Part shown: one piece after another, positions 3,565 to 27,147 of the stretch
Layout: each line of letters starts with the position of its first letter
Numbering within the stretch: position 1 is the first letter of the stretch
Source: an uncultured Acidobacteriota bacterium
GTDB lineage: Bacteria; Acidobacteriota; Terriglobia; Terriglobales; Acidobacteriaceae
Assembly (NCBI GenBank): GCA_963841655.1
Contig: CAWJDR010000003.1
Coordinates: 74,854-138,853, forward strand
DNA length: 64,000 nt
Reading direction: 5' to 3'
Made by a program: the position numbers and the translations under genes
Notes under the pieces: generated by a model
What the model was told of the DNA's origin: nothing
Database searches by the model: none
The model's input: only the letters and a program-made list of their open reading frames with translations

Positions 3565-3640
3565 GTCCTCTTCCTTCTGGCTTCGCCACTCTTCGCAAGG
3601 CTTTGTAGCTTAGGCGGGATACGAAGCTCGTCCGAAACGC

Positions 3641-3677
3641 GAACGGGCCATCATCTATCTTGGATGATGGCCCGTTC
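3641..3677 (-). terminator. attenuator/terminator hairpin of the ilvBN leader
   Basis: Perfect 15-bp stem GAACGGGCCATCATC / GATGATGGCCCGTTC with a 7-nt loop. On the minus strand it is followed by GCGTTTCGG, a weak U-tract. It lies between the leader ORF stop (3700) and the ilvB start (3564). Confidence 0.55.
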
Positions 3678-3699
3678 AGAAGCTTGGCTGAGCGTCACA

Positions 3700-3810
3700 T
3701 CATCCGCTGCAGTGGATTCCTACCGATACTCGTACGACTACGCTGAAAACAATAGCGGGGAACCGCTGGTCCTGTCTAAGTCGCTTCGAGTTGGCGGTAA
3801 AGGTAAGCAT
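3700..3810 (-). CDS. candidate ilvBN leader peptide (36 aa, MLTFTANSKRLRQDQRFPAIVFSVVVRVSVGIHCSG)
   Basis: Internal ATG at 3810 of track ORF 3700..3948. 8 of 14 residues in AIVFSVVVRVSVGI are Val or Ile. The stop codon lies inside GGATGATG (3705-3698), which can pair with CATCATCC of the terminator 5' arm. Confidence 0.5.
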   Translation of the reverse strand: MLTFTANSKRLRQDQRFPAIVFSVVVRVSVGIHCSG

Positions 3811-3832
3811 TTTCGCCAGATCTATTGCACAT

Positions 3833-3861
3833 TTTGTAATCGTTCCGCTCGGCCGAGTCAA
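3833..3861 (-). promoter_or_regulatory. candidate sigma70-type promoter of the ilvBN leader
   Basis: Minus strand TTGACT (3861-3856), 17 nt, TACAAA (3838-3833), just downstream of the hom stop. The extended -35 region TTGACTCGGCCGAGCG is nearly identical to that of the his promoter. Confidence 0.4.
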
Positions 3862-3901
3862 GGATAATCTGGTAACACTCTGGTTCTGGAAGGCTGGTTG
3901 G

Positions 3902-5191: not shown

Positions 5192-5209
5192 AATCGGCTG
5201 AAGAATCGA

Positions 5210-6765: not shown

Positions 6766-8305
6766 TTACTCGGTTGGATTGCGCGGAAACTTCAAATACG
6801 GCAGCCGCACGCTTTGGATGACAACTTGGTCGGCGCGGATTGCTGTCGGTGCTTGAAAGTTCAGGGCGCCTGCGTTTGTGACGTAATCATCCTGATCGAC
6901 GCCGTCACCGCTCACCCCCAATCCTCCCACCAGAACGCCATTCTTGTAGAGGGGCAAGCTACCTGGGAAAAACACGATGCCATTCTGGTTAGCGTTGGCC
7001 GGTTGCGATCCTTGCGTGCAGGGATTTGCCAGGTCCGAAATAAACAGGGCAAAGAACGGGCCCGAGCCTGAGCTATCGATGCCCGGAGGAAACAACGGTT
7101 GCGCGGCGAAGCCGATCGTGCGATTCGTAATCGCAGTGCTGCTGGGCATGCCTGGCAAGTCGCCAGAGCCTGACGGACCGCTAAAATAGATCACATTCCT
7201 GGCTTTCGCGACCGCGACATCAATGCTGAACACGGTTGCGTCGGGCATCCGATGCAGACCAAGAATTGTGCCATCCAAGTCGGCCACCGCGATCGTCATG
7301 CGGGTGCGCGACCCTGAAGGTAGGCGAATCACGGCACGAGTAGTCTGTGCCGTTGCAACGGCTTGATCGATAATTGCCGAAACGTCAGATTGGGTGAGGC
7401 CGCCAGTTCCGACTAATGGTCCGACCAAGTCACCTTCGGGAGGCAGACTGCCTGCAACAGGTCCGATCAGAAAACTCCCCGTGAAGCTGCCCGGTTCCAA
7501 CTCCGGAGGGCACCGTCGTTTGGTTCACGAACGGTAGGGCAATTCCACCAATGATGACGACGCCGGGTGGCGGCAGTTGCGCAGTCGTAGGCAGAAACCC
7601 TGAGGCAGATGCGCCCGAGAAAGCAGCAAACTCAGCGACCTCGGGTGAGGTGCTCACCACGCCGATCCCACCGACCGCGTGACCATCCTTGAAGAGCGGG
7701 ACGCCTCCTGGATTCACTGCGAATGGATCGCTATCCGTTTCGTCTATTTTCCCAGTGATGATTCCCGGTCCCAGACTTAGTCCATCGATGGATCGCGACG
7801 GATTGACTGCTTTCCCTGGGTTGAAGCTCGCATTGAGGGCACAGCCCCGATTGGTGTTTTCAATGCCATATAAGTCGGCGTTGGGTGCCAGGGACACTCC
7901 CGGGGGAAAGTGAATGCCACTGATAAAACGCACCGTCCGGCTGGAAAGAGGAGCCTGGTCGTTGCTAAACAGAGCGGCCGTTCGCGCAAGGGCGGCAGCA
8001 AGTTCGTTACTGTCGACAGAGACACTGAAGTTGCCGATGGACGTCGTCGGTGCTCCGGGAGTTCGGAACACGGCGAGGATGTTTCCTATTCGATCCGATA
8101 CGGCCACGACAACGGGCACATCCACAGATTGCACAGCGTTCTGAACCACAATTTGTACGTCAGCGACACTGAGCGGTGCCCCTGAGGAAGGGGAAGGCGG
8201 TGTGACTGAGGCATGGTCACCCGTACAGGACATGAAGCTCCCCAGCCCGAGGAGTAGCGCTGTACTGGCCGTGAGCATGTACTGTCTGTTGTAAGGGCGA
8301 TTCAT
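6766..8305 (-). pseudogene. secreted or lipoprotein with two tandem GlcG/HbpS-like (DUF336) domains; one frameshift as assembled
   Basis: Track ORFs 7430..8305 and 6766..7500 overlap by 71 nt in different frames. Each carries a DUF336-like core (VVVAVSDRIGNILAVFRTPGA; TIAVADLDGTILGLHRMPDA). The frames join at about 7495-7505 (..VPSG / EPGSFTG..). The N-terminus has a signal peptide with Cys (LGSFMSC). Confidence 0.6.
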
Positions 8306-8490: not shown

Positions 8491-9339
8491 TTGTCTTGGA
8501 AACACGGGAGAACTCACTTGAATTCATTCAATCGGCTGATTGCGGGCGTCCTATGCATACTCCTGTCACCGTTGCCGGCACTATGTGAACCGGCGGCAGG
8601 TGACTATGCCGGTCAGATCAATGCGCTTATCCCGGCAGCCACGCGCAATGCCAGGCCGACCAAGGTGAAGGATGATCTGCAATGGAACGACTTGTTGAAG
8701 ACGGAGAAGTCGGGCCGACTGAGAGCAGGACTCGCGGACGGATCGATTCTGAGTCTCGGGTCCAATAGTGAACTGAAGGTCGTCCAACACGATGCCACTT
8801 CCCAGCAAACATCTCTGGAGATGAATTTCGGGAAGGTTCGCAGCAAGGTAGTGAAGATTACGCAGCCCAATGGCAAGTTCGAAATGAAGACGCCTAACGC
8901 CGTGATTGGCGTTGTGGGCACTGATTTCTACGTGGGCTACGAACCCAATAGAACTACCGTGATCTGCTACACCGGTCAGGTCATGGTCACGCCGGCGGGC
9001 AATGCCAAGATCGTTCGGAACTCCGGGCAAAACAATGCGGACAATTCGATTGCCGTCAGCGCAGGTCAAATGGTGATTATCAGCACCGAGATTCCGCCGG
9101 CGGGTTTCCAATCGGATGCGACGCCCTCTGACGTCCTGAAATCGAGCATGATCGATACCGAAGTGCCGGATGGTCCGCCACCAGCTCTCCATCCGCACCT
9201 GGTGCGCAACCTGATTCTTGGGATTGGAGTCGCCGCGACAGGATGGGCCGTCGGCATTACGCAGCTGAATCAGCATGGTGGCGCGCCTGCAGCGCGGCCA
9301 ACCTGCCAGATCAATCCGCAGACCGGGAAATGCGGCTAA
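8491..9339 (+). CDS. FecR-domain protein (signal peptide, C-terminal TM)
   Basis: 282 aa. FecR-like beta-sandwich signature (GSILSLGSNSELKV ... VIGVVGTDFYV) and a C-terminal hydrophobic helix. Directly upstream of the CHASE2 cyclase. Confidence 0.7.
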   Translation: MSWKHGRTHLNSFNRLIAGVLCILLSPLPALCEPAAGDYAGQINALIPAATRNARPTKVKDDLQWNDLLKTEKSGRLRAGLADGSILSLGSNSELKVVQHDATSQQTSLEMNFGKVRSKVVKITQPNGKFEMKTPNAVIGVVGTDFYVGYEPNRTTVICYTGQVMVTPAGNAKIVRNSGQNNADNSIAVSAGQMVIISTEIPPAGFQSDATPSDVLKSSMIDTEVPDGPPPALHPHLVRNLILGIGVAATGWAVGITQLNQHGGAPAARPTCQINPQTGKCG

Positions 9340-9416
9340 ATATGCGGGCCGGAGATTCTTCAGCACTTCCACCGCAGCGTGGAGCGTTCGGTCTGCCTGA
9401 TGCACTCTCTGCCGTC

Positions 9417-11776
9417 ATGACTCAACATACCCAGCGGTGGTCGCAGCGGCTGAGCCGCCTATCAAGCCGCCAGGTCGATATTGCTCTTGCCATCATGGTG
9501 ACCGCGGCGGGTCTTCTGCTGTTTGCATTTGCGGGCATTGGTGGAAGCCGGCGCGCCGGTTTCCTTTTTCTCCAGAACGTCGAGCAACGCTTGCTCGACA
9601 TGCGATTCGGACTGCGCGGCCAACGGGCCGCATGATGACCGGATCGTGATCGTCGGTATTGACGAGAGGACACTCCAGAAGATTGGATCGTTCCCACTCC
9701 CTCGCAGCACCTACGCAACGCTCGTGCAACGACTGAGTGCAGGCGGAGCGCGAGTCGTTGCCTTCGATGCAACCTTCCCAACTCCCGAGAGCAACTCCGC
9801 AGCCAAGCCCTACAGAAGTTGCAAGCAGAATTGGGTGCGTCAGCGTCTCCCGCTGTTACGCATGACAATTCGGCAGCTTCAGGCGGCGAGTGATCAGGAT
9901 GCCTTGCTGGCCCACACATTGAAGGAATCGGGGAACGTGGTGCTCGGTCATCTGTTTCTCGATGCGGAGCGCGCCAAAGGCGCGGATCCAAAGCTGGAAG
10001 AAGAATATTTCAATATCGTGTGGGCCAAGGCCTTTCCGCAGGTACTCAAGGTCAAATCCAAAGACGGTCGCGACTTCGACCTAGGGAAGGCCTGGATCGA
10101 CAACGGCGGTACGGTGGCTGCCGGAGCGGAAGCCAACATCACTAAACTTGCCGAGGCGGCCGCATCATACGGGTTCATCGACATCAATCCCGATGCGGAC
10201 GGGACCCTGCGGCACGCGTTGCTGATCATGCGCTACCGGGACCAGGATTTTTTCCCTTCGCTGGCACTGCAAATCCTGCGCGAGTACGAACAGATTCCCG
10301 ATCAGCAAATTGCGGCGTACATCTCGGAAGACGGGCTCGAGCGAGTTCAGTTCGGAGGACATGAGCTCCATGCTTCCAGAGATGGCACCGCCATCATCAA
10401 CTACGTCGGTCCTTACGAGACTTATTCGCATTACTCGATGTGGGACGTCATGCGCGGCTCCGTTCCACCGGAGACGTTTAAGGACAAGATCGTCCTGGTG
10501 GGGGCCACTGCGAAGGCGATCGGAGATCTGCGCAACACGCCCTTCCAGGGTCGCGAAGCCTACATGGGCGTCGAGGTACACGCCAACATCCTCGACAACT
10601 TGCTTCACAGCGGAGAAAAGGGACGAGGCTTCTTGACCCGTGGAGCCCGTGAAGAGATGACGGATATCGGGTTCATCCTCTTATTTGGAATTGGTCTGGC
10701 TTGGTGGTTCGGCCGGGTCCGGCCGCTTTATTCGACTCTGTCGGTAGTGCTCTTGCTAGGCGGGTTCGGGTGGTTCGTATACTTCAGCTTTGCGCAGTGG
10801 GGGAGTTGGCTCAGTTTCACGATTCCGGCGGGTACGCTGGTGGCGAACTACGCGACGATTACCAGCTTCCGCATGATTTTCGAAGAACGCGAAAAACGGA
10901 AGATCCGAAAGACGTTCTCACAATACTTGTCGCCCGGCGTCATCGCACTGATTGAGAAAGATCCGCAGAAATACATCCGGCCAGGTGGTGAGACGAAAGA
11001 TCTGACCGTTATGTTCAGTGATATCCGTGATTTCACGACCTTGTCCGAAGGCCTGACCGCCGATGAACTCGTGCACCTGCTGAACGAATACCTGGGTGAG
11101 ATGACGGACGCGCTTTTCCGAAACCTTGGCACGCTCGACAAATACATCGGCGACGCCATCATGGCATTTTGGGGATCGCCTTATCCGCAAGACGATCACG
11201 CGCTGCGCGCTTGCGCATGTGCGCTGGAAATGGTTCGCTGCCTCGATATTTTGAATGCCAAATGGGAGGCAGAAGGGCGAAAACGCATTTCCATCGGGAT
11301 CGGGTTGAACACGGGTCCTGTGAATGTGGGCAACATGGGATCGTCGAAGCGGCTGGCTTGGACCGTCATGGGCGACAACGTGAACCTCGCCTCGCGACTG
11401 GAAGGCATGACCAAGCAATACCGCACCAGAATCATCATCAGCGAGGCCACGTATCGGCAGGTCGCCGACCATTTCGTTTGCCGCGATCTCGATAACATCC
11501 GCGTAAAGGGAAAGCTGCAGCCGGTGGGAATCTACGAAGTACTGGGCCCTGTGGAAGACCAGCTCAAAATATGAACCACTGCTGCAAGGTTTCAACGACG
11601 CAATGAGCGCATACCGCAGTCAGCGGTGGCAGGAGGCAGCAGGTAAATTTGGAGTTCTCCTGACCTCGTACCCCGACGACGGACCGACCCAGATTTTTCT
11701 GCAGCGAGCTCTGGATTTCATGGAAAAAGCGCCCGACCCCGATTGGGACGGCGTCTACGTGATGAAGACCAAGTAG
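9417..11776 (+). pseudogene. CHASE2-sensor class III adenylate/guanylate cyclase; two frameshifts as assembled
   Basis: The N-terminal TM plus LQNVEQRLLDMRFGLRGQR lies in the frame of ORF 9243..9635 (ATG 9417). The CHASE2 body, 3 TM helices and the cyclase domain (VMFSDIRDFTTLSE ... GDAIMAFWG ... GLNTGPVNVGNMGS) lie in ORF 9523..11574. The conserved tail YEPLLQGFNDAMSAYRSQRWQEAA...DWDGVYVMKTK continues in a third frame to the TAG at 11774-76. The shifts fall at GGG 9625-27 and AAAA 11566-69. Confidence 0.85.
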
Positions 11777-11783
11777 CCCCGAT

Positions 11784-13322
11784 TTACTTCTCGAAATTTC
11801 TCCAGTGGCGGCCGTCGTGTTCCAACAATGCGTCGGCTTCCTTGGGACCCCATGTGCCAGCGGCATAGTTCGGAAAGCTGCGTGGGGGCAGAGCCTTCCA
11901 GATATCCAGCATGGGGCTAACGATGCTCCACCCTGCCTCGACCATATCGGCGCGCTGAAACAAGGTAGCGTCACCCACCATGCAGTCGTGCAGGAGTCGT
12001 TCGTACCCGTGCTGGGCTGCTTTGCCGAAGTAGTCTGCGTATTCAAAATCCATGTCGACCGTTCCCAGCCGCATCACCGGCCCCGGAGTCTTCGCCGCGA
12101 AACGCAAAGAAATGCCCTCTTCTGGTTGGATATGGAGCACCAGTTGGTTTGGCATCAGATTCTCGACGCTGGTGTCGCGGAAAAGAACAAACGGTGCCTG
12201 CCGGAACTGAATAACAATGTGGGTGTTGCGTGCCGGGAAGCGCTTGCCAGTGCGGAGATAGAAGGGAACTCCAGCCCAGCGCCAATTGTCGATCTGCAAC
12301 TTCATAGCGACATAGGTTTCGGTGCGCGAGTCGGGAGGCACGCCTGGCTCGGACCGGTAGGCTGGGACGTGCTGCCCGAGGAATTCTCCTTCGCCATATT
12401 GCCCACGCACGGTACGGCTCAGGACTTCTTCCGAAGTCAGGGGCTGGATCGCGTGCAGGATCTTCGCCTGCTCGTCACGAACCGCGTCCGCCTGAAACGA
12501 TATGGGTGGCTCCATGGCGGTGAGGCTGATCAATTGCATGATGTGATTCGGGACCATGTCGCGGAGCGCTCCGGCATGGTCGTAGTATCCGCCACGCTGC
12601 TCGACGCCGACCGTTTCCGCTACTGAGATCTGGATGTGGTCGATGTAGCGACGATTCCAGATCGGTTCGAAGATCCCATTGGCAAAGCGGAAGGCCATGA
12701 TGTTCTGCACCGTCTCTTTGCCCAGGTAGTGATCAATCCGATAGATCTGCTGCTCATCGACGACCTTGAGCAGTTGTTTATTCAGAGCGCGCGCCGACTC
12801 GAGGTCACGGCCGAAAGGCTTTTCGACTATCACACGCCGCCAGTGATGGTTCTCCTCCGTCATCAGGCCAACGGCGTGCAGTTGTTCCACGACCGGGCCA
12901 AAGAAATCAGGTGCGATCGCAAGATAGTAGAAATAGTTGCCGTGCGTAGCGTGAGCGTCGTCCAGTTTCTGGAGCAGATCCTTTAATTGCAAGAAGGTGC
13001 GTTGATCCCCGAACTCACCGGTCAGGTAGTACATGCGGCGTTCGAACCACTCCTGTAGATCGGCGTCCAGTTCGACATCCGCAAACTGCTGCAGGTCCTG
13101 TTTGAGCTTGACTCGGAACTCCTCAGTCGTCATTGCGTCGTGTGCCACCCCTACGACAGCAAACTCACGGGATAGTAGATGGTGTTTTCCCAGGTTGTAG
13201 AGCGCAGGAATCAATTTCCGTCGGGTCAGATCCCCGGAAGCACCAAAGATCACCATAACGCAGGGATCTCCTGGACGGCCGATCCGTTCACCGTCCCCGT
13301 TAGCAGCGGCAGTTTGAGCCAT
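11784..13322 (-). CDS. zwf: glucose-6-phosphate dehydrogenase
   Basis: 512 aa. [20 protein letters not shown] and EKPFG motifs. Confidence 0.95.
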
Positions 13323-13491: not shown

Positions 13492-15684
13492 GTGCGGATT
13501 AGCCGGGGTGTGTCCCGATGGCGTCTCGCGCGAATTCCGGGCTGGGTGCAATGGTTGCCCGCATCCCTGTGCCTATTCGCGTCGGCAGTATCTGCGCAGG
13601 CGCCGGTGAGTACCCAAGGTTCACCTGAACGCCGGATTCCCGAACGAAGTGCCATAAGCACAGCCGCGCTCCAGGGCAAGGTTCGTGATCAGTGGGGACG
13701 GGCCGTGCCGGCTGTGGCGATAGAACTTCGCGGCAAATTGCAAACCTACACCGCCGTCACCAATGCTGAAGGAATCTTCCGCTTGCGAGACATCCGCCTT
13801 GGGGAATACGAACTTCAACTTGCACACGAGGGCTTCGAGTCTCGCGTTATGAAGGACCTAAAGGTCGAAAGAGCGGGCCTGATCGTGCTGGAGATCGACC
13901 TGCAATCATTGACCAACAGCTCTCCCGAGAGCGAAAGTCTCTCGGGCGTTCCTGGGTCGCCGCGAACCCTTCCCCAGCCAATCGTTTCGACTTCCCCGTA
14001 TCCCGGTATACGTAACCCTGTCACCGGCACCATCGCGGCCGAGGCTGCGAACGAAGCCGTTCCTGCCGCGTCGGATACCTTTGCATCTGCTTTTGATCGC
14101 TGGGAAATCGCGATACCGGAATGGAAGCGTTACGAGACTCAACCCGATGCTCCCTATGTAAAAGGGCACTGGTACGACCCGTTCAACCGGAACAAGCTCA
14201 AAGGAGACTATCCCGTCTTCGGACAGCGCTGGTTCTTTAATTTCACAGGCAGAAGCGAAACTCATTTTGGTGCCCGCCGCTTGCCGCTACCCAGTGGCCT
14301 TGACTCGGCCAATCCCGGCAGTAGCGCATTCTTTGGTCGGGGAGAGCAAGCGCTGGCGGCGGAAGACTTGCGTTTTTCGTTTGATCTGTTTCGCGGCGAT
14401 ACCGCCTTCCGCCCAGCAGATATACGATTCCGCTTCACGCCCGAGGTGAACCTGAATTTTCTGCAGGCTCGCGAGCGCGGCATCGTGAACATCGATCCGC
14501 GCAAGGGCACAGAGCGATTCGATACGCACGCAGGCGTGCAGGAAGCGTTCGTCGAGGCGAAGCTCCACGATCTTAGTCCCAACTACGATTTCGTCTCGAT
14601 TCGGGCTGGAATTCAGCAGTTCACCAGCGATTTCCGCGGGTTCCTCTTCTCGGAAGAGCAACCCGGAGTGCGGGTTTTCGGGAATTTAGGCTCTAACCGT
14701 TTCGCGTACAACCTGGCTTGGTTCTACTTCCTGGAGAAGAACACAAACAGCGGATTGAACACGTTTCAAAATCGTGGACAGCAAGTCTATGTGGCCAACG
14801 TTTATGTGCAGGACTTTCTGGCCAAGGGGTACACCACGGAGTTCAGTTTCCACCACAACCGCGATCACGGTGGTGTTCACTTCGACGACAATGGGTTTCT
14901 TGTGCGCCCGGCGCCGATTGGAGGCGTAGTCAACAGCACAATCAAAACTCACAACATTGAGGCCTACTACCTCGGGTGGGCGAGCAACGGCCACATTGGA
15001 CGTCTTAATGTGAGTCACGCCTTCTATCAAGCATTGGGACATGATGACTTCAACGCGATTGCGGGCCGGCGTGTCGACATCAACGCCCGCATGGCTGCGC
15101 TTGAGCTTTCTGTCGATAAGGACTGGGCGCGCTATCGAGCGTCAGTCTTCTACTCGTCGGGAGACTCGAGCAACCGTTCAGGAACATCCCGAACCGACGG
15201 CACAGCGCACGGATTCGACTCCATCGTAGACGATACACATTTTGCAGGAAGTGCTTTCAGTTTCTGGAACAGCGAGGGATTGCGGCTCACCGGAACTGGT
15301 ATTGCGCTGGTCAGTCCGGCGAGTCTTTTGCCGAGTCTGCGGGCGAATAAAGAGGAAGGCCAAGCCAATTTTGTAAATCCTGGTCTCATGCTGTTTAACA
15401 TCGGCGCGGACTTCAATCTCACTCCCAAACTGCGCACATTCGTCAACACGAACTATCTGCGATTTGACCGTACGGAGCCGCTGGAGTTGCTGCTGTTTCA
15501 GCGGCCAATTGACCACGGCATCGGCACAGATTTCGGAGCTGGTGCCGAGTACCGGCCTCCGCTGAGTGAAAACATTGTGATTCGCGGAGGAGCTTCCGCT
15601 TTGGTGCCCGGCCAGGGACTCAAGCAGATTTACAGTGGCCAGACTCTGTTTTCGTTGTTCGGCAACATTCGATTTCAGTTCTAG
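13492..15684 (+). CDS. outer-membrane beta-barrel protein with N-terminal carboxypeptidase-regulatory-like domain
   Basis: 730 aa. Signal peptide (..[10 protein letters not shown]), a CarboxypepD_reg-like stretch ([20 protein letters not shown]...[18 protein letters not shown]), a long alternating-strand region, and a C-terminal OMP signal ..FGNIRFQF. 20 nt upstream of the large cytochrome gene. Confidence 0.6.
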
Positions 15685-15704
15685 ACGACAGTTCGACCCT
15701 TGGC

Positions 15705-18700
15705 ATGAAGATTGCACACGCAAGGATAGCTTTGGTCCTGTTGACGGCGATCGTGGCCTCGCCGACATATCTGCGCGCGCAATCTGACGCAGCCGAGCCG
15801 AATGCACTTCTCTTGCAGTCGCAAGCCGATACCGATGAAAAGTCAGGCGGATGCCTAACCTGTCATACCGCTACTGACAGTCCAACGATGCACACGACCG
15901 GAACCGTGCGACTTGGCTGCACCGATTGTCACGGCGGCAACAGCGAAATTCGGGGGACCGGCAGTCCGAAGTCCCCGGAATACCTGCAAGCAAAAAAGCG
16001 AGCTCACCCCGAGGCGAGCATTTTGCGTTCGGACGAATCAGCGAATCCAGTGCGTGTCTCTACCGGCTGGTTGCGTGAGGACTGGAACTATGTTCGTTTT
16101 GTGAATCCAGGCGATCTTCGAGTGGCAGAAAGGACCTGCGGAGCTTCAGGGTGTCACATTGCCGAGGTTAGAAAAGTTCAAACCAGCATGATGACGCACG
16201 GTGCCATGCTCTGGGGCGCCGCCCTGTACAACAATGGTGCATTCCCCTTGAAGGATCCGCATTTCGGTGAAAGCTATGGTCCTGATGGCGTGCCGCAGCA
16301 GCTTATGACATTTCCAACTCCGACTGGAGAGGAGATCGAAAAGAAAGGCGTTCTGCCGCAGCTTGAGCCTTTGCAGCGGTGGGAAATTTCGCAACCTGGA
16401 AATGTGCTGCGAGTTTTCGAACGTGGAGGTCGAAAGCGTTCCGAGATAGGCAATCCCGATCCAGAAGAAGACCCCGGCAAGCCCGAGATCAAGCTGAGCG
16501 AACGGGGATTCGGAACCGAGTTGCGCACCGATCCTGTTTTTCTCGGCCTGCAGAAGACTCGCCTTCTCGATCCGCTCTTGTCGTTTCCAGGCACGAACGA
16601 TCAGGCCGGCGACTATCGTGCGAGCGGCTGTAGTGCCTGTCACGTTATATATGCAAATGACCGGTCCGCGGAGCATTCCGGCACCTCTGCGATGAACGGC
16701 AACCGCGGGCAAAGTGCATCCGAGGATCCAACCATTCCTCGTGACCAATCCGGGCATCCGATTCGCCACGAGTTCACGCGCTCGATTCCATCGAGTCAAT
16801 GCATTGTCTGCCACATCCACCCGGGCACCAACATGGTGGCTACTTATTTCGGGTACACCTGGTGGGATAACGAAATGGATGGCCAGCACATGTGGCCACC
16901 TCAGCAGCGTCGGGCGACCAGCGCTGAACAGAGTCAAGTGCAGGCCCGCAATCCGGAGCGCTCTGCCATTCGTGGCTTGTGGTCCGACGTTAAGTTTCTT
17001 GAAACGACGGGCACGCCCGAGTTTAACCGGCAACTCAACGATACCCAGTTTGCCGATTTTCACAGCCATGGCTGGATCTTCCGCGCAGTTTTTAAACACG
17101 ATCGCAAAGGCACGCTGCTGGACGCCCAAGATCGGCCTGTATCCCATGAGGATCCTGAGAAATTCGGCAGGGCAGTCCACCTCAAGGACATTCACCTCGA
17201 AAAGGGCATGCACTGCATCGATTGCCATTTCGAGCAGGACAATCATGGCAATGGGAAACTGTACGGAGAGACTCGCAATGCGATTGAGATCGATTGCGTC
17301 GATTGTCACGGCACGATCGAGCAACGAGCCACGCTGAGTACCTCGGGTCCAGCGGCCCCTACAGGTGGCACGAAACTGGCCGCACTTCGTACCCCGTGGA
17401 GAGAACGCCGTTTCTATTGGAGCGAAGGTCGTTTGTATCAGCGATCGATGCTCGACAAGGACAAGAAGTGGGAAGTCGTGCAAGTGCTGGACACGATCAC
17501 TCCGGGTAACGAGCACTACAGTGAAAAGTCACGACTGGCGAAGACAGTTCAGCAAGACGGTCAAACGTGGGGCGCGGCAGTCGATGAATCCAGATTGGCG
17601 CACCAAAACAGCCGAATGACCTGCTACGCCTGCCACTCGTCGTGGGCCCCTACCTGTTACGGATGCCATCTTTCGATGACTGCCAACCAGCGTACGCCGA
17701 TGCTGCACAACGAGGGCACGACGACGCGCAATTGGACTTCCTACAATTTCCAGATCCTTCGGGACGATATCTACACTCTCGGCATCGATGGAACCGTGAC
17801 TGGACATCGAGTGGCGCCTGTGCGATCGGCTTGTGCCGTACTCGTCAGTTCGCAGAACAATGATCGCGATTGGCTCTACTATCAGCAACAGACGATCTCG
17901 GCGGAAGGCTTCAGCGGGCAGGCGTTCTCGACGTTTGTGCCGCACACCGTGCGTGCCAAGGAAACCAAAGGATGCACGGATTGCCACGTGTCACGCGCGA
18001 ACGATAACAATGCGTGGATGGCGCAGTTGCTGTTGCAGGGTACCAACTTCATGAACTTCATGGGGCGTTACGTGTTTGTCGCGGACGGTAAAAGCGGGTT
18101 TGAGGCGGTAGCTGTTACCGAACACGACGAACCGCCGGTCGTGTTCGGCAGCGACTTCCAGAAGATCGCCTTTCCAGAAGACTTTAAGGCCCACGTTGAA
18201 CGCCGTCGCGAATTGAAACAGGCGTACGGTCATTCCGGTGCTGAAGTCCTCGATCTCCAGGCGCGCGGCGAGTATCTGTACGCAGCTACTGGAACAGGAG
18301 GATTGCGCATCTTCGATATCGCCAACATCGACAACAAAGATATTTCGGAACGCCTGGTGACCGCCCCCGTCTCACGGCTCGGCCAGCGCTTCTACCTTCC
18401 CACCAAGTACGCGACCGCCGTAGCAACACCAACGACTCTAGGGGTCGACCCATTGCGGACCCATCGCAAGGAGAACGAAGAGCAAGCCGTCCATCTGATG
18501 TACGGTTTTCTTTACGTTGCTGACAAGTACGAAGGTCTCGTGATCGTCGGAGATCCTAATCTGAAGAGCAAGAGTCCCGGAGTGGGCACTCTCCTTGACG
18601 GGAATCCTGCGAACAATTTTCTAAAGCGGGCGTTGGCGTTCAACCCTGAGGGGAAGTTAAACGGAGCACGCCGGATCACGATCGCAGGCACGTACGCGTA

Positions 18701-19442
18701 TGTGCTGTGCGATGTCGGTCTGGTGGTTGTTGACCTCGAAAACCCGCTCCAGCCCAAAATCACGTCCGAAATCGGAAATCCAGTACTGAATGCTCCGCGC
18801 GGGATCGCGGTGCAGTTTCGGTATGCGTTCGTGGTAGATCGCGAAGGCCTGAAGGTTCTCGATGTAACTCGTCTGGACCAACCACGAGTTGTATCCGGTG
18901 CAACTGTGCCTGTGGACGACGCTCGCAACATTTATGTTGCGCGTACGTACGCATATGTCGCGGCCGGGAAGGATGGCGTGGCGATCGTCGATGTAGAGCG
19001 GCCGGAGAATCCCAAGCTTGACCAGGTGTTCAATGCGGATGGCCAGGTGAACGACGCCTATGATGTCAAGCTGGGCATGGTCAGTTCGAGCCTCTTCGCT
19101 TATGTCGCAGATGGAAAGCATGGTCTGCGGGTTGTGCAATTGTTCTCGCCCGTCGACAACCCGGCCTTTAGTGGTTTTAGTCCCAGGCCAACTCCGAAGT
19201 TGATTGCCAGCTACCGCACGCGCGGCCCTGCCCTTGCAGTTTCGAAGGGCATCGATCGGGATCGCGCCGTGGACGAAAGCGGGAATCAGCTAGCGGTTTT
19301 CGGGCGCCGTGGAGCTCGTCCGTTCAATCGGCAGGAAATGGAACGCATGTTCCTTCGGGATAGTGAGTTGTATACGGTGACTGACGATCCGCCGAATGCG
19401 CCAGTTGCTGATGCTAAGCCGACCTCTGCGAATTCTCACTGA
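15705..19442 (+). CDS. multihaem c-type cytochrome fused to a C-terminal LVIVD-repeat beta-propeller
   Basis: 1245 aa with a signal peptide. 9 CxxCH motifs (CLTCH, CTDCH, CSACH, CIVCH, CIDCH, CVDCH, CYACH, CYGCH, CTDCH) plus one CGASGCH. About 6 LVIVD-type repeats ([74 protein letters not shown]) lie roughly at nt 18270-19160. Confidence 0.8.
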
Positions 19443-19457
19443 GCAGGGGGGCCGGCG

Positions 19458-20814
19458 TCACTGTGGGCCAAGGTGCGCTATGCCGCGAAGTTCAGGAATA
19501 CTGAAGTGCCCTTTCGTCCGCTTCGCCTGGCTCCAATCATGATATTGGTGGCACTCGAAGCACCGGCCTTCGGCAACTTCTCTTGATGAACTGGCTTCCC
19601 GATGGCACTGGCGGCAGGTCTCGATCCCAGGCAGCAGAATGTCGGATGTATCGTGGCTTTCCATGGTGCGAACGTGGCAGGCGGTACAGGACATCATGCG
19701 ATGGGCGCGATGATCAAATTCGGCATGTCGTAGCCACCGGGGCGCGATGTTCGCCGGTGCGACCTCCGGAAGAGTCCCAGCGACGGAATCGAGAACGTGG
19801 CACTGCCGGCAGGTCTTGGTCCATAGCAACCATTCCGCATCCTCGGTGCGAAACTGCACCCACTCTGTGGCGTTCCGGGCGACGCGCGGGGCGCGTGCGT
19901 CCTCAGGTAATTGCCGGTTAGGCGGTTCTGCCTCATGAATCACCGCCGGATGAGCCGCTAGATATTCCTCAAATCGCTTCTTCAAAAACAGGTGGACCAC
20001 TTGGGGCTTATCATGTGGCACCTGCTCGCTGCCGAAATGCCTGTCGAATTGCAGCAAATGGCACGCTGCACAGTGGCTTGTGAAGCGAATGGGGACCATG
20101 TACGCCCCGACCTGCACTTTGTTGTCCCGCTCACTACTCTGCGTGAGCGGGTCCGTACGAACCGTGGCCGCATATGGCCAGGTGCCGGAGTCCTCTGACC
20201 GATGGCAATCGTCGCAAGACAACTGCACCCGCGTATGGTCAGGACCGATGAGGTTCGGTTGCAGGTGCAGGTAGTGGTTCAGCCGGATCTTGCCGTGGTC
20301 GATCTGTGCCTCCAATCAGCGCCGAGAATTCCGGATGACTGCGGTCGAAGCTGGAGATTGCAGACGCAAAATGCGGTTGTCCATCCCGAGTCTGCAGATG
20401 CGAATGGCATTGCGTACAACTAGCCACGCTAGCCGCCGACAAGCGCACGTCACCTCGATGCTCCGTGTGGCAGGAGGAGCAATGAGGCGTGAAACGCTGA
20501 TTGGCACGGTGTACCGGGCCGTCGTGACAGGTGAGACACGCCTCGTCGCTTACTTCCTTGAAGAACGTTCCGGTCCGAGTCAGATGGCAGAGGCCGCACT
20601 GCTGCGTAAAGACAGCGTGAGCTTGGGCGAGGGGGCCGCTTGAGTATGCCTTCTGACCTCCTTGGACTTGTTGGGTTAGCAGCCACCCGAGGGCAAGAAC
20701 GGGGACTGTCAACGACAACCAGAAACGCCAGCGGCGAAATGGGTGCGGACGCGCGAAGTACTGCAGGTCAATGCGTCGAGCGAGCTTTTTGGTAGTGCGC
20801 GTCCTTCGCAGCAT
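19458..20814 (-). pseudogene. membrane-anchored multihaem cytochrome c (about 10 CxxCH; c3/NapC-like style); one frameshift as assembled, or two overlapping genes
   Basis: ORF 20239..20814 has an N-terminal TM (WRFWLSLTVPVLALGWLL) and 4 CxxCH. ORF 19458..20315 has 6 CxxCH and starts on TTG. The two overlap by 77 nt. The text reads through as ..SHPEFSAL / LEAQIDHGKIRLNH.. at about 20300-20320. Confidence 0.7.
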
Positions 20815-20823
20815 CGCTTTGTC

Positions 20824-21744: not shown

Positions 21745-21749
21745 TGGAT

Positions 21750-23912
21750 CTATCCCTCGAGTGGGCCGGACTGCTTGAGTAGTCCGGCGAAAAATTCGGG
21801 CGGATTCACTCGATGCGCGGCATCATGTGGACAGGCATAGACGCAGCTGGGCTCGGCATGGTCATGACACAAATCACAAGAGGTAGCTTTGACGCGCACG
21901 CTGGCTACTTTCCGGCCCGGATGGGCTGGATCGTCTAGTTCGACAGGAAACGGGTGCAGGTTAATATTGCCGTAAGGACAGTTGTTGGCGCACAGGCCGC
22001 AGCCGATACACCAGTCCTCGATGATGACTTCGAGGGAATTCCGGCGGCGGATAGAACCGACCGGACATCCAACCATGCACAGCGGATCGCGACACTGCCG
22101 GCAGGAGGTGGCTACCAGGTATTTGTCGAAGCGAAGTCCCTCGCGCACCAGTCGGCTGACACCATCATGCGCGTCGGCACAGGCTCGAACACACTGATCA
22201 CAACGGGTACACCGTTCCAGATCGAGGACCAGCAGGCTTTGCGCCTCCATCAGGCCGTTCGCTAGAAACTGGTCGACCGGCAGGTTTTGCACCTGAGTTA
22301 CGCGACGCCGGTTCTCTTCCAAACGCTCCCGGGCGATGGCTTCCAAACGACTACGAATATCCGGAAAGCGCTCCAGCATGAGTCCGAAGTCTTCGCGGGA
22401 AATGCGGACAGCCTCGACGTGATCGAGAGCCGTACAAGTTGCGGTGCGCGGGCTGCCACTGAGGAGGGCAATCTCTCCGAAGTAGCCGCCCCGCGCGAGA
22501 TAAGCCAGGACAAGTTCGCCGCCAGGACGCTCCTCGGACACCTTCACGAAGCCAATCCGCACCAGGTAGAAGCTGTCGGCCGCCTCTCCTTGGCGACAAA
22601 TCACCTGGCCGGGGTTGAAGCGCAGCAACTCCACCCGGTCACGGAGGTGATCAATGAAGTCCTTCGTGAGAGAGGAGAAGATGGGCACGCTGCGCAGATG
22701 CGAGTCGAGAGCGCGTGTGCGGTAGTTACGCTCCAGTTGGGCGCGGAAGGTTTTGTTGCGCTGAAGGATATCGAGGACGTTGCGGAGCATTTCAAGCATC
22801 ACGCAATCGGTCCGTGCGCGCACCGTCGCGGAGCGCGGGTAGTAGCTCATGCAGGTCATTTCGCCGAACAACTCGCCCGGCCCCAGTTCAGCGATCGGAT
22901 TGTCATAGGGCAAGTCGACCGTCGCGTCGATTGGAATGAACGGCCGATCGCCTTCCTCATGGCGCTGGTGCCGCTCTCGCGGGCTGAGGATGCTTTTCAG
23001 CCTCTTGAAAAAGCCTTTGCTGCTGCCCTCAGTTCTGACGTGCGCCATCGGGCTGGAGAGAAAGACCTCTGCTTTTCCCTCGAGGATGTAAAACGCAGTC
23101 GAACCAAACTCGCCCTCACGGCAAATCATCTCGCCCGCACGGTAGTGCCGTTTCACCACTGCTTTTTGATTCAGTTCCAGAAATGTGCCGGAAACGTTCT
23201 GGAAGATAGGCAGGTGCAATAATTCAGAGGGATCGAGAACATCTCCGATTCCCAATTCTGTCCCCACTACGCGCTTGTTCGTCAGAGCTCCCGTCGGACA
23301 GGAAACCATACACTCACCGCAGGAGACGCAGGACGACTCTCCCATGGGCAGATTTGTGTCGAAGGCCACACCCGCCTGGTATCCCTTGCCGCGGCGTGCC
23401 AACACCCAGTTGTTCCGAATGTCATCACAGCCCCGGATACAGCGATCGCACAGAATGCAGGATTCGTGGTCGACCGCGATGACAGCCGAAGAATCGTCTT
23501 TTCCGCGTGGGGTCATGCGGCGCGGGAAGCGTGGCTGATCAATGCGGGCGGCAGTTGCCAGGCGTTCCAGTTCGCAGTCTCCGGAATGCTGTTGACGCGC
23601 GCACGGGGCAGGGTGATCGGACATCAACAGTTCGATCAGCGTGTGGCGCGCTGCCTGGACCTGTTCGGTCGAGGTCTTCACGGTCATGCCTGGTTCCACT
23701 TGCCGAATACACGACGCTGCATACACGCGCTGGCCGACATCGACGACACAAACGCGGCAGACGCCCACCGGGTTTTCATTCTGCTGGTGGCAAAGCGTAG
23801 GGATCGCGATGCCATGGGTGCGAGCAGCATCGAAAATCGTCGTGCCGGCAGGAACCGACACGGGTGTTTCATCGATGGTCAATTGGACCGTGGGCGGCGG
23901 TGCGGAACTCAT
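21750..23912 (-). CDS. Fe-S protein: NuoG/HoxU-like N-terminus + 2 cyclic-nucleotide-binding domains + DmsB/NrfC-like 4x[4Fe-4S] C-terminus
   Basis: 720 aa with no signal peptide. 2Fe-2S fold (CHQQNENPVGVCRVCVVDV), CILCDRCIRGC and CVSCGECMVSCP clusters. Two CNB domains with phosphate-binding cassettes (LFGEMTCMSYYPRSATVRA; YFGEIALLSGSPRTATCTA). The C-terminus has CTRCDQCVRAC, CRQCRDPLCMVGCP, CIGCGLCANNCP and CDLCHDHAEPSCVYACP. 4-nt overlap with nuoEF. Confidence 0.8.
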   Translation of the reverse strand: MSSAPPPTVQLTIDETPVSVPAGTTIFDAARTHGIAIPTLCHQQNENPVGVCRVCVVDVGQRVYAASCIRQVEPGMTVKTSTEQVQAARHTLIELLMSDHPAPCARQQHSGDCELERLATAARIDQPRFPRRMTPRGKDDSSAVIAVDHESCILCDRCIRGCDDIRNNWVLARRGKGYQAGVAFDTNLPMGESSCVSCGECMVSCPTGALTNKRVVGTELGIGDVLDPSELLHLPIFQNVSGTFLELNQKAVVKRHYRAGEMICREGEFGSTAFYILEGKAEVFLSSPMAHVRTEGSSKGFFKRLKSILSPRERHQRHEEGDRPFIPIDATVDLPYDNPIAELGPGELFGEMTCMSYYPRSATVRARTDCVMLEMLRNVLDILQRNKTFRAQLERNYRTRALDSHLRSVPIFSSLTKDFIDHLRDRVELLRFNPGQVICRQGEAADSFYLVRIGFVKVSEERPGGELVLAYLARGGYFGEIALLSGSPRTATCTALDHVEAVRISREDFGLMLERFPDIRSRLEAIARERLEENRRRVTQVQNLPVDQFLANGLMEAQSLLVLDLERCTRCDQCVRACADAHDGVSRLVREGLRFDKYLVATSCRQCRDPLCMVGCPVGSIRRRNSLEVIIEDWCIGCGLCANNCPYGNINLHPFPVELDDPAHPGRKVASVRVKATSCDLCHDHAEPSCVYACPHDAAHRVNPPEFFAGLLKQSGPLEG

Positions 23913-25582
23913 GCCGTCCCTCTATTGGAGAAGCAGACTCCCGCCGAGCAGTGGTGACGAGATAGATGTTCCTCTACGACGTCGGGGAAGTGCTTTAGCA
24001 CGGAAGCAATCGGCACTGGAACCACTTGTCCGAGCCCGCAAATGGAAGTTAACTTCATAGCCGAGGAAAGCTCGTCGAGAAGCTGACGATCGGTTTGCGA
24101 AGATCGACCTTCCGTCCATCCCGTCAACATTTCGACCATTTTTTGCGAACCCATGCGACAGGGGACACATTTCCCGCAAGATTCGTTCCGGTAGAAGCGC
24201 ACAGCGTTGAGCGCCATGTCGAGCATGCACCGGCCTTCGGCAACAACCACGATCGCGCCCGAGCCCACCATGGAACCGGCGGCGGCTACAGCATTCCAGT
24301 CGAGCGCAAGATCCGCCATCGAAGCAGGGAGATATCCGGACGAGGGGCCAGAGGGTGCATAAGCCAGAAGCCTTCGATTGTCCAAAACCCCACCGGCAAG
24401 CTCGTAGATGAGTTCGGAGTACTTGGTTCCCATGGGGACTTCGAAGACGCCAGGCGAGTTCACATCCCCACTGACCCCCACGAACTTCATGCCAACTGAG
24501 CCGTTTTTGCCTTGCGCCTTGAACCAGTCGGCACCTCGCGCGAGGATCGCTGTGGCAAACGTGAATGTTTCGACGTTATTGATTGCGGTCGGCTGATTCC
24601 ATAGGCCATTCGTGCCCGGGAACGGAGGCTTGTTGCGGGGTTCGGCTCGCTTGCCTTCAATTGCTTCCAGCAGCGCACTCTCTTCGCCGCAAATGTAACC
24701 TCCCGGGCTGACGAAGATCTCTAGATCAAACGACAAGTCACTCCCGAGGATGCGTTTGCCAAGCAGTCCCGACTCGTAGCAATGCTCGATTTCCTTCTGC
24801 AAAACCTTCTTGGGTTCTTCGTACTCGTGTCGGATATATAGAATTCCTTGCTGCGCTCCGGTGACGAGCCCAGCAGTGATCATGCCCTCGATCACCAGGT
24901 GAGGGACTGTCTCCATGATGAAGCGATCCTTGATGGTGCCCGGTTCACTCTCGTCTGCATTGCAGACGATGTACTTCGCCTTACCCGGCGCGTTGCGGAC
25001 GATTTCCCACTTGTTGCCGGTCGGAAACCCGGCGCCTCCCATACCTCGCAAACCGCTTGCCTTGAGAGTCGCGATGATCCCGCTCCAATCCCGCGTTTCC
25101 ACGAACCGGCGGACGACAGAGTAGTTCGACGATCCGTTGTAGGGATCCGAACTGACCCGCGCCTGCGGGTTGTCCAGCGGCGCCAGAGGGAGTGGGCGAC
25201 GAGAGAGAGCATCACGAACCAGTCTGATCGCATTGGACCTATCCAAATTGCAGAAGATGCGGTCGTTCACAGAAAGCGCGGGCGCCTGATCGCAGCGACC
25301 GAGGCAGGAGACGTCTCGGATCGACGCGTCTTCGGAGCCCTCTCCCCGGAAAGCCTGCTTGAGCTCTGCTTTGAGTTCGGGACCACCGCGCAGGTGACAG
25401 CTCATGTCCGCACAGACCTTCACTTCAGCCGCGGGAGGTGGCGTTAAGTGAAAATGCGGATAGAAGCTGGCTACCGTGTGGATCTGACTGACGGGAACGT
25501 TGATTTGCGCAGCGAGCTGCTGCAACTGTTCGGCCGGCAAATAACCAAACTGCTGCTGGATCGCCCTGAGTTGGTCAAACAA
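23909..25582 (-). CDS. NuoE-NuoF fusion flavoprotein (NAD(P)H-binding, FMN, 2Fe-2S + 4Fe-4S)
   Basis: 557 aa. NuoE-like N-terminus (FGYLPAEQLQQLAAQINVPVSQIHTVASFY, CADMSCHLRG, CLGRCDQAP). NuoF core (GLRGMGGAGFPTGNKW, ADESEPGT, ESCGKCVPCRMG). Confidence 0.9.
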   Translation of the reverse strand: MFDQLRAIQQQFGYLPAEQLQQLAAQINVPVSQIHTVASFYPHFHLTPPPAAEVKVCADMSCHLRGGPELKAELKQAFRGEGSEDASIRDVSCLGRCDQAPALSVNDRIFCNLDRSNAIRLVRDALSRRPLPLAPLDNPQARVSSDPYNGSSNYSVVRRFVETRDWSGIIATLKASGLRGMGGAGFPTGNKWEIVRNAPGKAKYIVCNADESEPGTIKDRFIMETVPHLVIEGMITAGLVTGAQQGILYIRHEYEEPKKVLQKEIEHCYESGLLGKRILGSDLSFDLEIFVSPGGYICGEESALLEAIEGKRAEPRNKPPFPGTNGLWNQPTAINNVETFTFATAILARGADWFKAQGKNGSVGMKFVGVSGDVNSPGVFEVPMGTKYSELIYELAGGVLDNRRLLAYAPSGPSSGYLPASMADLALDWNAVAAAGSMVGSGAIVVVAEGRCMLDMALNAVRFYRNESCGKCVPCRMGSQKMVEMLTGWTEGRSSQTDRQLLDELSSAMKLTSICGLGQVVPVPIASVLKHFPDVVEEHLSRHHCSAGVCFSNRGTA

Positions 25583-25814
25583 GGCGCTAGAGTCCCCTTA
25601 GGTTCGGATGAGTCGTATTGGAGATTTGAGGGAATCTTACCGTCCCCTGTTTGCTCAGGGGAATACCGATCTTGGGACACGCGCACTGACGATCGGACCT
25701 GTACTGACGTGCTTGCCCCGTACCAAACTGTCAATTGATTCCGCCCTCCAGAATGAGTATAAGCAAGGCCAATCCGCAACGATCACGCGCGGAATTCTTT
25801 CATCACCAAGAGCC

Positions 25815-27147
25815 ATGGGCAAGACACCGAACCCGGCGTGGCAAGTAGTGGTGTGCCTCGCTTTTGCGACGGTGGTCGCTGCCCAAAACAGTTCGGCGGG
25901 CAAGTACAACGGTCCGGGCGGATGCGCCAGTAGCAGTTGTCACGGGAGCATCCAGCCCAAGCAGATCACGCGCGTTGCGCAGAACGAATACAGCATCTGG
26001 GCCGGGCAAGATAAGCATGCGCGTGCCTACCAGGTGCTCTCCAATCCGGTCTCCATACGGATCGGCAAGATTCTCAACATCGGCCGGCCTGATCAAGCGC
26101 AGAAATGTCTTGCCTGCCACGCACTATCGGTCCCCGCCGAGCAACGCGCCGAATCGTTCGAACTGATTGACGGCGTGAGTTGTGAGAGCTGCCACGGGCC
26201 CGCCTCAGGATGGCTCGGTCCGCACACAACCCGTGATTGGCCGCACGAGAAGTCTGTTCAGCTGGGAATGTACGATACCCGCGACCTGATCAAGCGCAGC
26301 GAGCGCTGCTTGAGTTGCCATCTAGGTACGGCGGAAAAGTTTGTCGATCACCAAATGATTGCCGCCGGACACCCCGACCTGACCTTCGAACTCAATCTCT
26401 TCAGTGCGGTGATGCCTCGTCATTGGAAGCAACCTCCAGATGACGCCTGGCGCGGGGTGCAGGAGTGGGGAATCGGCGAGGCGGTGCAACTGCAGAAGGG
26501 GTTGGAGCGTTTAGCGCGGCGGGCCAGCAGTTCGACGTGGCCGGAATACGGCGAACTCGATTGTTTTGCCTGCCATCACAGTCTGACGAAGCCGGAAGAT
26601 AGCTGGCGACAAGAACTCGGCTACTCGGGACGCAAGCCCGGCGTGCCTGCTTGGAATGGGTCCCGCTATGTGGTATTTCGTCATCTGGTGCAGAAAGATA
26701 AATGCTGATGTGGCGATCCAGTTGGACGCCGACATGGTGAAGCTTGCCAGCCTGCTCGGCCAGCCGAACGCGAACCCGCAGGATATTGCCGCTACTGCGA
26801 CCCGAGGGGCAGGATTCGCCGGCCAGATTTCGCGGCAACTCAGTGCGAAGACCTATGACCAGTCATTCACACTTGGCTTAATGCGGGCTATTGTGCAGGA
26901 TGGCGAATCTATTTCGGGGCAGGGACAACGCGCTGCCGAGCAAGCTGCAATGTCTCTGGACTCCCTCTTCGTGGCCTACAAGCAAAATGCGAAGGCAGAG
27001 AACGAATCTGAAATTCGGGAATCGATTAACGGGCTCTTCCAGCAACTGGACAACCCTTCCGCGTACAACGCTCCCCGTTTCGCCGCACAGATGCAGAAGG
27101 TGAGCTCTGTTTTGTCACGCGTCGGCCGGGAGAAGGCGAGCCAGTGA
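25815..27147 (+). pseudogene. periplasmic multihaem cytochrome c (c554-like style, 4 CxxCH + 1 CX4CH) with helical C-terminal domain; one frameshift as assembled
   Basis: Start taken at MGKTPNPAWQVVVCLAFATVVAAQ (signal peptide) inside ORF 25608..26708. Motifs CASSSCH, CLACH, CESCH, CLSCH, CFACH. The reading continues ..RHLVQK / INADVAIQLD.. into ORF 26656..27147, with the shift at AAA 26694-96. Confidence 0.7.

Follow-up and report, generated by a model that had tools for sequence, protein, structure and literature searches.

A conserved outer-membrane barrel and decahaem cytochrome-propeller gene pair in Terriglobia, the possible distal end of an electron-export module

Introduction

In Shewanella, Rhodopseudomonas and Sideroxydans, the MtrCAB, PioAB and MtoAB systems place the gene for an outer-membrane barrel beside that for a decahaem c-type cytochrome, together with linked periplasmic and inner-membrane cytochromes, and carry electrons across the cell envelope. 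A locus of the same outline lies in a contig from an uncultured acidobacterium of the family Acidobacteriaceae (GenBank assembly GCA_963841655.1, contig CAWJDR010000003.1), of which a stretch of 64,000 nucleotides (positions 74,854 to 138,853 of the forward strand) was analysed; this whole stretch is referred to below as the window, and positions are given in its numbering. Here, a 730-residue outer-membrane beta-barrel protein and a 1245-residue secreted decahaem cytochrome fused to an LVIVD beta-propeller are encoded side by side, and the role proposed for them is likewise electron transfer across the envelope. An original prediction, made from the letters and open reading frames of the window, had described the two genes as a porin-cytochrome pair in the manner of MtrAB or the Geobacter Pcc complexes. 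The cassette that they form turns out to be widespread, conserved and uncharacterised, and we infer the location of its products, their substrate and the direction of electron flow from the comparisons presented here.

Two further groups of clusters bear on the comparison. In Geobacter, the selenite- and tellurite-linked ext cluster (ExtHIJKL-MNOPQS) combines ExtI, a 45-kDa porin-like protein, with multihaem cytochromes and with iron-sulfur (FeS) and b- or bc-type membrane subunits; among its cytochromes is ExtM, a 12-haem protein of 68 kDa without an established activity. NHL-propeller cytochrome clusters occur in Desulfovibrio ferrophilus, and in the uet cluster of Tenderiales separate beta-propeller proteins are encoded beside porins and outer cytochromes. 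Within Terriglobales, a porin-NHL-CytC cluster named 'EET1' was proposed to serve extracellular electron transfer; in it, the gene for a 6-bladed NHL/DUF5128 propeller stands by itself between those for a porin resembling MtrB and for a cytochrome, and the cytochromes are rich in haem. Other cytochrome-porin clusters in Terriglobia were reported alongside it (Fiorito et al. 2026, bioRxiv 10.64898/2026.05.27.727921). The same study ranked cytochromes by haem density, and the cytochrome-propeller protein described here would therefore rank low in such screens. Full-text literature searches found no paper describing an LVIVD-multihaem fusion or a barrel/cytochrome-propeller cassette.

Results

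The two genes form a conserved pair

The stop codon of the barrel gene and the ATG of the cytochrome-propeller gene are separated by exactly 20 nt (coordinates in Table 1). To assess how widely this arrangement is kept, 80 fetched loci were surveyed for synteny by tblastn with the window proteins. Wherever an acidobacterial locus has a full upstream flank (75 loci), the barrel gene immediately precedes the cytochrome gene in the same orientation; in two further loci its 3' end is visible at the contig edge. The pair is also adjacent in three more distant loci, one from candidate division KSB1 (52% identity for the cytochrome and 50% for the barrel) and two designated L082 (53%) and L083 (61%). 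The pairing that the original prediction drew from one genome, and that would have lost its force had the two genes not been neighbours elsewhere, is thus a recurrent one. Close relatives of the window all come from the class Terriglobia of the Acidobacteriota, and its G+C content is about 57%. A relative of the cytochrome occurs in no fewer than 580 species-representative genomes. Metagenomes add at least 8000 protein clusters, and the best 120 of these, at 74-90% identity, are all annotated 'hypothetical'.

In most of 77 loci, about 18-120 nt lie between the stop of the barrel gene and the extrapolated start of the cytochrome gene. From this short, conserved gap alone we infer that the two genes are probably co-transcribed. 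No junction-spanning contig was present among the RNA contigs searched, which came from a soil metatranscriptome; a sigma-70 promoter scan returned no match, and the matches of a terminator scan were not above chance.

Table 1 Coordinates of the gene pair and its neighbours in the window
Feature	Position	Strand	Remarks
Tandem HbpS-like/GlcG-like secreted protein	6766..8305	-	about 590 aa in relatives; in the window, two overlapping open reading frames in different frames (about 7430-7526)
FecR-domain protein and CHASE2 adenylate/guanylate cyclase	8491..11574	+	candidate regulators; cyclase in 28 of 80 loci
Outer-membrane beta-barrel protein	13492..15684	+	GTG start, 730 aa, TAG stop at 15682-15684
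Decahaem cytochrome-LVIVD propeller	15705..19442	+	ATG start, 1245 aa
Membrane-anchored decahaem (4+6 CXXCH) cytochrome c	19458..20814	-	two open reading frames in the window, 20239-20814 (tetrahaem) and 19458-20315 (hexahaem)
Integral membrane protein, 306 aa	20824..21744	-	no Pfam/NCBIfam match; four conserved His
Cytoplasmic FeS protein, 720 aa	21750..23912	-	HoxU/NuoG-N-like 2Fe-2S and 4Fe-4S module, three cyclic nucleotide monophosphate (cNMP)-binding domains, C-terminal poly-4Fe-4S
NuoE-NuoF fusion, 557 aa, NADH-oxidising FMN/FeS input module	23909..25582	-	TIGR01959, E 1e-131
Cytochrome c554-like pentahaem protein	25608..26708	+	in KSB1 and L082, a homologue immediately follows the cytochrome-propeller gene

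The barrel protein appears to belong to an undescribed family

The barrel protein begins with a signal peptide (cleavage form ...ASAVSA/QAP), which is followed by an immunoglobulin (Ig)-like CarboxypepD_reg domain at residues 60-137 (13669-13902; E 7.5e-11), the sole Pfam domain above its cutoff, then by a Pro-rich linker and a barrel region of about 530 residues (about 14089-15681). The protein ends in ...GNIRFQF, with the alternating hydrophobic residues and final Phe that usually make up an outer-membrane beta-signal. Across 25 orthologues, the most distant at 49% identity, the C-terminus retains this aromatic signal (...F-x-x-h-K/R-F-Q/T-F). For the signal peptide, the CarboxypepD_reg domain and the C-terminus, as for the 20-nt spacing, the open reading frames and the Pfam search bear out what was first read from the window. 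The protein itself carries no haem motif.

An ordinary TonB-dependent receptor with a plug, the alternative that the original prediction itself had raised, was not found. None of 25 barrel orthologues matches Plug (PF07715) or TonB_dep_Rec (PF00593) in Pfam; identity as a TonB-dependent receptor, which would call for a plug and a 22-strand TonB_dep_Rec barrel, is rejected for want of a plug domain. Likewise, the MtrB/PioB family (PF11854; about 26 strands) gave no match at E <= 1 in the window barrel or in 24 orthologues, and residues 200-730 have no match in NCBIfam or in sequence searches of the PDB, whether run with the single sequence or with a profile. Alginate_exp (PF13372) was detected in three of 25 orthologues at 13-17 bits (E >= 0.003, over 45-80 residues), below the gathering score of 25.2 bits, and no AlgE chain was retrieved from the PDB by profile search with the barrel protein. 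On these comparisons the barrel is best assigned to an undescribed family.

An AlphaFold2 (AF2) model of the barrel protein, built on 57 homologues of 67-100% identity, has a mean predicted local distance difference test score (pLDDT) of 39, and only the CarboxypepD_reg domain is confident. Two crude measures, the secondary structure of this poor model and an alternation score over a 25-sequence alignment, hint at some 16-20 amphipathic strands. A conserved segment of about 100 residues (560-660), which includes a motif, has no predicted strands and could be a loop in the lumen or a plug. The barrel orthologues of KSB1 (locus L081, 8150-9991, 613 aa) and L082 (6585-8303, 572 aa) are about 50% identical over the barrel region and do not have CarboxypepD_reg, and the Ig-like domain is therefore taken to be an accessory added in the Terriglobia lineage.

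The cytochrome-propeller protein joins ten haem motifs to an LVIVD propeller

The second protein consists of a signal peptide (residues 1-25, 15705-15779), a haem domain (residues ~26-790, 15780-18074) and a propeller (residues ~790-1180, 18075-19244). The signal peptide in the window is a plain Sec signal (...TYLRA/QS), and neither a lipobox nor a C-terminal sorting signal is present in the window protein or its clade. Nine CXXCH motifs (at residues 50, 72, 309, 366, 504, 531, 640, 651 and 757) and one CX4CH motif (CGASGCH, at 145) make ten haem motifs, all within residues 1-761, in agreement with the nine or ten that the original prediction had counted in the first 800 or so residues. All ten are conserved in relatives of 40-58% identity, as are 11 further His (H63, H101, H355, H372, H492, H497, H503, H514, H633, H668 and H747). 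With the ten motifs and these extra residues, a sixth ligand (bis-His) is therefore possible for every haem, and the protein looks like an electron-transfer protein. The set of conserved His fits such a role and would be compatible with a catalytic site as well. Neither a CXXCK motif nor another atypical catalytic haem motif occurs in the sequence. Haem motifs number 0.8 per 100 residues over the whole protein and about one per 76 residues within the haem domain.

The best family match of the haem domain is NCBIfam ExtM (NF040943), at residues 494-764 against model positions 258-504 of 599 (E 3e-23, 82 bits against a cutoff of 800). A profile search of the PDB with the same domain gave weak, short matches to octahaem nitrite reductase (ONR; E 2e-5) and NrfA, over residues 54-94 and 496-572.

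The C-terminal part matches LVIVD (PF08309) in Pfam with E 6e-20 and 70.7 bits against a cutoff of 20.2. Six units of the form G-h-x-h-h-D/Q-h start at residues 866, 944, 1005, 1048, 1091 and 1140, that at 944 having been read by eye, and they agree with the six or so repeats first noted in the last 450 or so residues. An NCBIfam match to the choice-of-anchor-B family TIGR04312 was also found. In an AF2 model of residues 30-1229 (43 homologues, 54-91% identity), this part forms a propeller of about seven blades with pLDDT mostly 75-96; the haem domain of the model is unusable. Foldseek comparison of the propeller with the PDB returned generic 7-bladed propellers (WD40, AztD, BamB) and no functional clue. 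As the units exceed the gathering score and the region is predicted to fold as a propeller, it is assigned to the LVIVD beta-propellers. Haem domain and propeller stay fused in full-length relatives down to 40-42% identity, and the protein has many invariant charged residues. In Acidoferrales, the cytochrome-propeller is 66-68% identical to that of the window, whereas the barrel reaches about 50% and the small cytochromes about 44%.

Relation to described porin-cytochrome systems

Membership in the MtrAB or Geobacter Pcc type, as the original prediction had it, did not hold up. In addition to the missing MtrB/PioB match of the barrel, the window cytochrome matches neither MtrA/DmsE (TIGR03508) nor MtrC/OmcA (TIGR03507, PF22113), and it lacks the lipobox. 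MtrA has about 3 haem motifs per 100 residues. The cytochrome here is large and haem-sparse and therefore not plausible as a wire inside the barrel; threading in the manner of MtrA is rejected on the grounds of its 1245 residues and its 0.8 motifs per 100. The differences extend to the rest of the system: unlike in MtrCAB, the cytochrome carries a fused propeller, the barrel region of about 530 residues is preceded by an Ig-like domain, and the feed at the inner membrane is a NAD(P)H/FeS/di-haem-b module in place of a quinol dehydrogenase such as CymA. To judge from these profiles, the pair resembles a porin-cytochrome system in outline, yet it matches none of the MtrCAB sequence families.

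The ext cluster of Geobacter has a comparable parts list. ExtM is the best family match of the haem domain, and both clusters pair a porin-like protein with multihaem cytochromes and FeS or b-type subunits. However, the match covers only about 250 residues, ExtM has no propeller, and ExtI has no detected similarity to the barrel. At 82 bits against the 800 set for a full-length equivalog, the haem domain appears to be a partial relative of ExtM. The similarity to ONR and NrfA is weak, being confined to the first two haems and to a haem pair at residues 496-572; the matches are short and marginal, the protein differs in length, lacks CXXCK and is fused to a propeller, and it is not a member of either family.

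EET1 shares with the pair a syntenic cluster of outer-membrane barrel, beta-propeller and multihaem cytochrome in the same bacterial order. In contrast to EET1, the propeller here is of the LVIVD type, has about seven blades and is part of the decahaem protein itself, which is haem-sparse; the barrels, too, are of different families. No match to NHL or DUF5128 was found in the proteins of the pair with Pfam. Identity with the published EET1 cluster is ruled out by the different propeller type and gene architecture.

Neighbouring genes recur with the pair

An operon on the minus strand, at 19.4-25.6 kb, converges on the cytochrome gene, whose stop is at 19442 and whose nearest neighbour ends at 19458. 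The pair and this NuoEF-cytochrome operon therefore share no transcript, and their co-transcription is ruled out by the opposite strands. The original prediction had suggested that the pair might be the outer terminus of this operon, with co-occurrence across genomes as the check. The neighbourhood is indeed conserved: about 66 of the 80 loci have the operon no more than 10 kb from the pair, and in KSB1 its core and the pair share one orientation. A link through co-transcription, on the other hand, is precluded by the convergent orientation. In the Acidoferrales locus L059, an IS110-family transposase (19007-20080 of that locus) and several housekeeping genes lie between pair and operon, and such insertions account for the separation of about 6-8 kb seen in Acidoferrales-like loci.

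KSB1 has its barrel and cytochrome-propeller genes clustered, all in one orientation, with genes homologous to those for the membrane, decahaem c, c554-like and cNMP-Fer4 proteins. KSB1 and L082 share the same-strand order HbpS-like, barrel, cytochrome-propeller, c554-like, cNMP-Fer4, and it is the cNMP and Fer4 part of the FeS protein that is conserved in both.

The 306-residue membrane protein of the operon has four His that are at least 95% conserved among 66 sequences. They form two pairs, H81/H95 and H285/H299; the members of each pair share a hydrophobic segment and are spaced by 14 residues. Transmembrane electron carriers of the di-haem-b type have their haem ligands arranged in this way, and the protein looks like an undescribed carrier of this kind, one that would link the cytoplasmic FeS protein to the periplasmic cytochromes. 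Eight relatives encode the decahaem c in a single open reading frame of 460-524 aa. In the window, the frame changes near 20290-20312, owing either to a genuine frameshift or to an indel in the assembly. For the c554-like gene beyond the operon, the listed start is about 70 codons upstream of the likely true start near M70 (MGKTPNPAWQVVVCLAFATVVAA...), from which a pentahaem periplasmic protein with a signal peptide would be made. This protein gives a weak match to DmsE, at 27 bits against a cutoff of 192.

On the other side of the pair, the HbpS-like gene is found no more than 10 kb away in 68 of 83 loci, and most of these have it next to the barrel gene in divergent orientation. In the clade of the window it is displaced from that position by the FecR-domain gene, the CHASE2 cyclase gene and a glucose-6-phosphate dehydrogenase (G6PD) gene. 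The last of these (11784-13322, minus strand) stands next to the barrel gene and is divergent from it. In L083, genes for TAL-PGI, 6PGD, G6PD and OpcA follow the pair (17559-23903 of that locus), a recurring link with the NADPH-generating oxidative pentose phosphate pathway. The FecR-domain and CHASE2 cyclase genes are candidates for supplying the cNMP that the FeS protein would sense, and in L083 an FHA-GAF cyclase and a class II cNMP phosphodiesterase occupy the equivalent position (2846-5312). Together, the three cNMP-binding domains of the FeS protein and the cyclases and phosphodiesterase nearby suggest cyclic-nucleotide control of the electron chain.

DNA of the window is represented in many soil metagenomes. 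In a soil metatranscriptome (run X25), contigs 95-99% identical to the window fall on the cytochrome-propeller gene (18670-19178) and on the genes for the membrane protein, the FeS protein and NuoEF, within 18670-24087 overall. The module may be transcribed in soil; carry-over of DNA could also give these contigs.

Discussion

The conserved cassette may form the outermost part, at the far side of the envelope, of a larger module for electron export, with the cytochrome-propeller protein as a terminal reductase beside the barrel, a reading that we regard as about evenly balanced between right and wrong. It draws on the export signals carried by both products of the pair, on their co-occurrence in every full-flank locus surveyed, and on the companions that the pair keeps across phyla, namely the cNMP-binding FeS protein, the membrane protein with the di-haem-b pattern, the membrane-anchored decahaem c, the c554-like cytochrome and the HbpS-like protein. 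To these, the NuoEF module is attached in Terriglobales.

In such a module, electrons would pass from NAD(P)H to the FeS proteins, a step gated by cNMP, and then to the two b haems of the membrane protein, by which they would cross the inner membrane. Periplasmic c-type cytochromes would receive them from the b haems and deliver them to the 1245-residue decahaem-propeller protein at the outer membrane, the presumed terminal reductase. This protein would stand beside the barrel and not thread it as MtrA threads MtrB. Placed on the periplasmic face, it could reduce a soluble or colloidal acceptor or shuttle that the barrel admits or releases, and its propeller would offer the face that binds the substrate or a partner. 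Through the three cNMP-binding domains of the FeS protein, the whole chain would be switched by cyclic-nucleotide signalling. ExtM, NrfA and ONR are periplasmic or envelope proteins, and because the sequence relatives of the cytochrome-propeller protein are of this periplasmic type, because its signal peptide is plain and because it is highly conserved, we lean slightly toward a position on the periplasmic side; a surface-exposed arrangement is nearly as likely.

Several observations weigh against an export terminus of this form. The barrel and the haem domain of the cytochrome were modelled by AF2 at pLDDT below 50, with no usable haem packing, barrel size or interface. Both the decahaem and the HbpS-like genes are frameshifted in the window. 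NuoEF was not seen in the KSB1 and L082 loci, and Pyr_redox_2 flavoproteins are found nearby instead in L082 and L059; the input module therefore varies, with the rest constant. Other points concern location. Propellers of the LVIVD and choice-of-anchor-B kinds typify surface proteins. Several of the more distant orthologues have clear lipoboxes, like MtrC and OmcA, in place of the signals for Sec and signal peptidase I found in the window clade. In addition, PF22113 (MtrC/MtrF domain II/IV) reaches 29.2 bits against a cutoff of 30 in two of five scanned orthologues and 24.7 bits in a third, in each case below threshold.

These points of location are also the ground for a rival explanation, extracellular electron transfer at the cell surface, in which the cytochrome-propeller would dock on the barrel as MtrC docks on MtrB, the c554-like protein or the decahaem c would bridge the outer membrane, and the propeller would bind mineral, humic or particulate organic matter. 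The propeller type, the lipoprotein signals and the near-threshold MtrC/MtrF domains all fit this arrangement, as do the tight operon with the barrel gene and the recurrence of separate propeller proteins beside porins and outer cytochromes in Tenderiales uet and Terriglobales EET1. We consider it possible rather than probable, given that the window clade has neither lipobox nor sorting signal and that the cytochrome is unusually conserved for a surface protein. Moreover, the barrel has no haem motif, a region of about 530 residues, a crude 16-20 strands and no MtrB/PioB match, and the haem proteins that might span it are putative. The high conservation and the many invariant charged residues would fit a second rival, a periplasmic multihaem enzyme that is a distant member of the NrfA, ONR or ExtM type, acting on a small molecule (an oxyanion of N, S or Se, or a metal chelate) that enters via the barrel, its propeller shaping the active site or holding a partner. 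ExtM, with the selenite- and tellurite-linked cluster and porin ExtI around it, is the best family match, profile matches to ONR and NrfA exist, and one haem motif per 76 residues of haem domain is in the range of multihaem enzymes. But the conserved His suffice as sixth ligands for all ten haems, catalytic haem motifs such as CXXCK are missing, the ONR and NrfA matches are weak and limited to short haem-motif stretches, and ExtM is itself a protein without established activity, so that an enzyme of this kind seems unlikely.

A third alternative reverses the flow: Fe(II), reduced humics or a partner would be the electron donor, and barrel and cytochrome would conduct the electrons inward. Multihaem chains are reversible in principle, and PioAB and MtoAB, which are related porin-cytochrome systems, work as oxidases. 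Here, however, the partner conserved on the cytoplasmic side is a dehydrogenase and FeS module of the NAD(P)H type, in which nothing that could couple energy to uphill flow is visible, and the genes nearby (G6PD, and 6PGD in L083) generate NADPH, making uptake very improbable. Returning to export through a terminal reductase beside the barrel, this reading can be extended to an undescribed quinone-bypassing, cNMP-switched pathway that would span the envelope in most soil and peat Terriglobia. It would lead from the NAD(P)H dehydrogenase module by way of a cNMP-gated polyferredoxin, a new di-haem-b carrier and periplasmic multihaem cytochromes to the decahaem-propeller protein and its new type of barrel, and in anoxic microsites Fe(III), humic matter or particulate organic matter would receive the electrons. 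We put this broader claim forward as speculative and rather doubtful.

Terriglobia are among the most abundant bacteria of soil and peat, and how they handle electrons without oxygen bears on carbon turnover and the suppression of methane. Should the pair prove instead to be a periplasmic enzyme with its private channel, it would still stand for a large, highly conserved family without an assigned function. If the pair is the terminus of electron export, both its barrel family and its cytochrome-propeller architecture would be new, electrons would have a path from NAD(P)H into the periplasm without passing the quinone pool, and cNMP would offer a regulatory handle. Were the export pathway to operate as proposed, nominally aerobic heterotrophs could use it to shed reducing equivalents in anoxic microsites.

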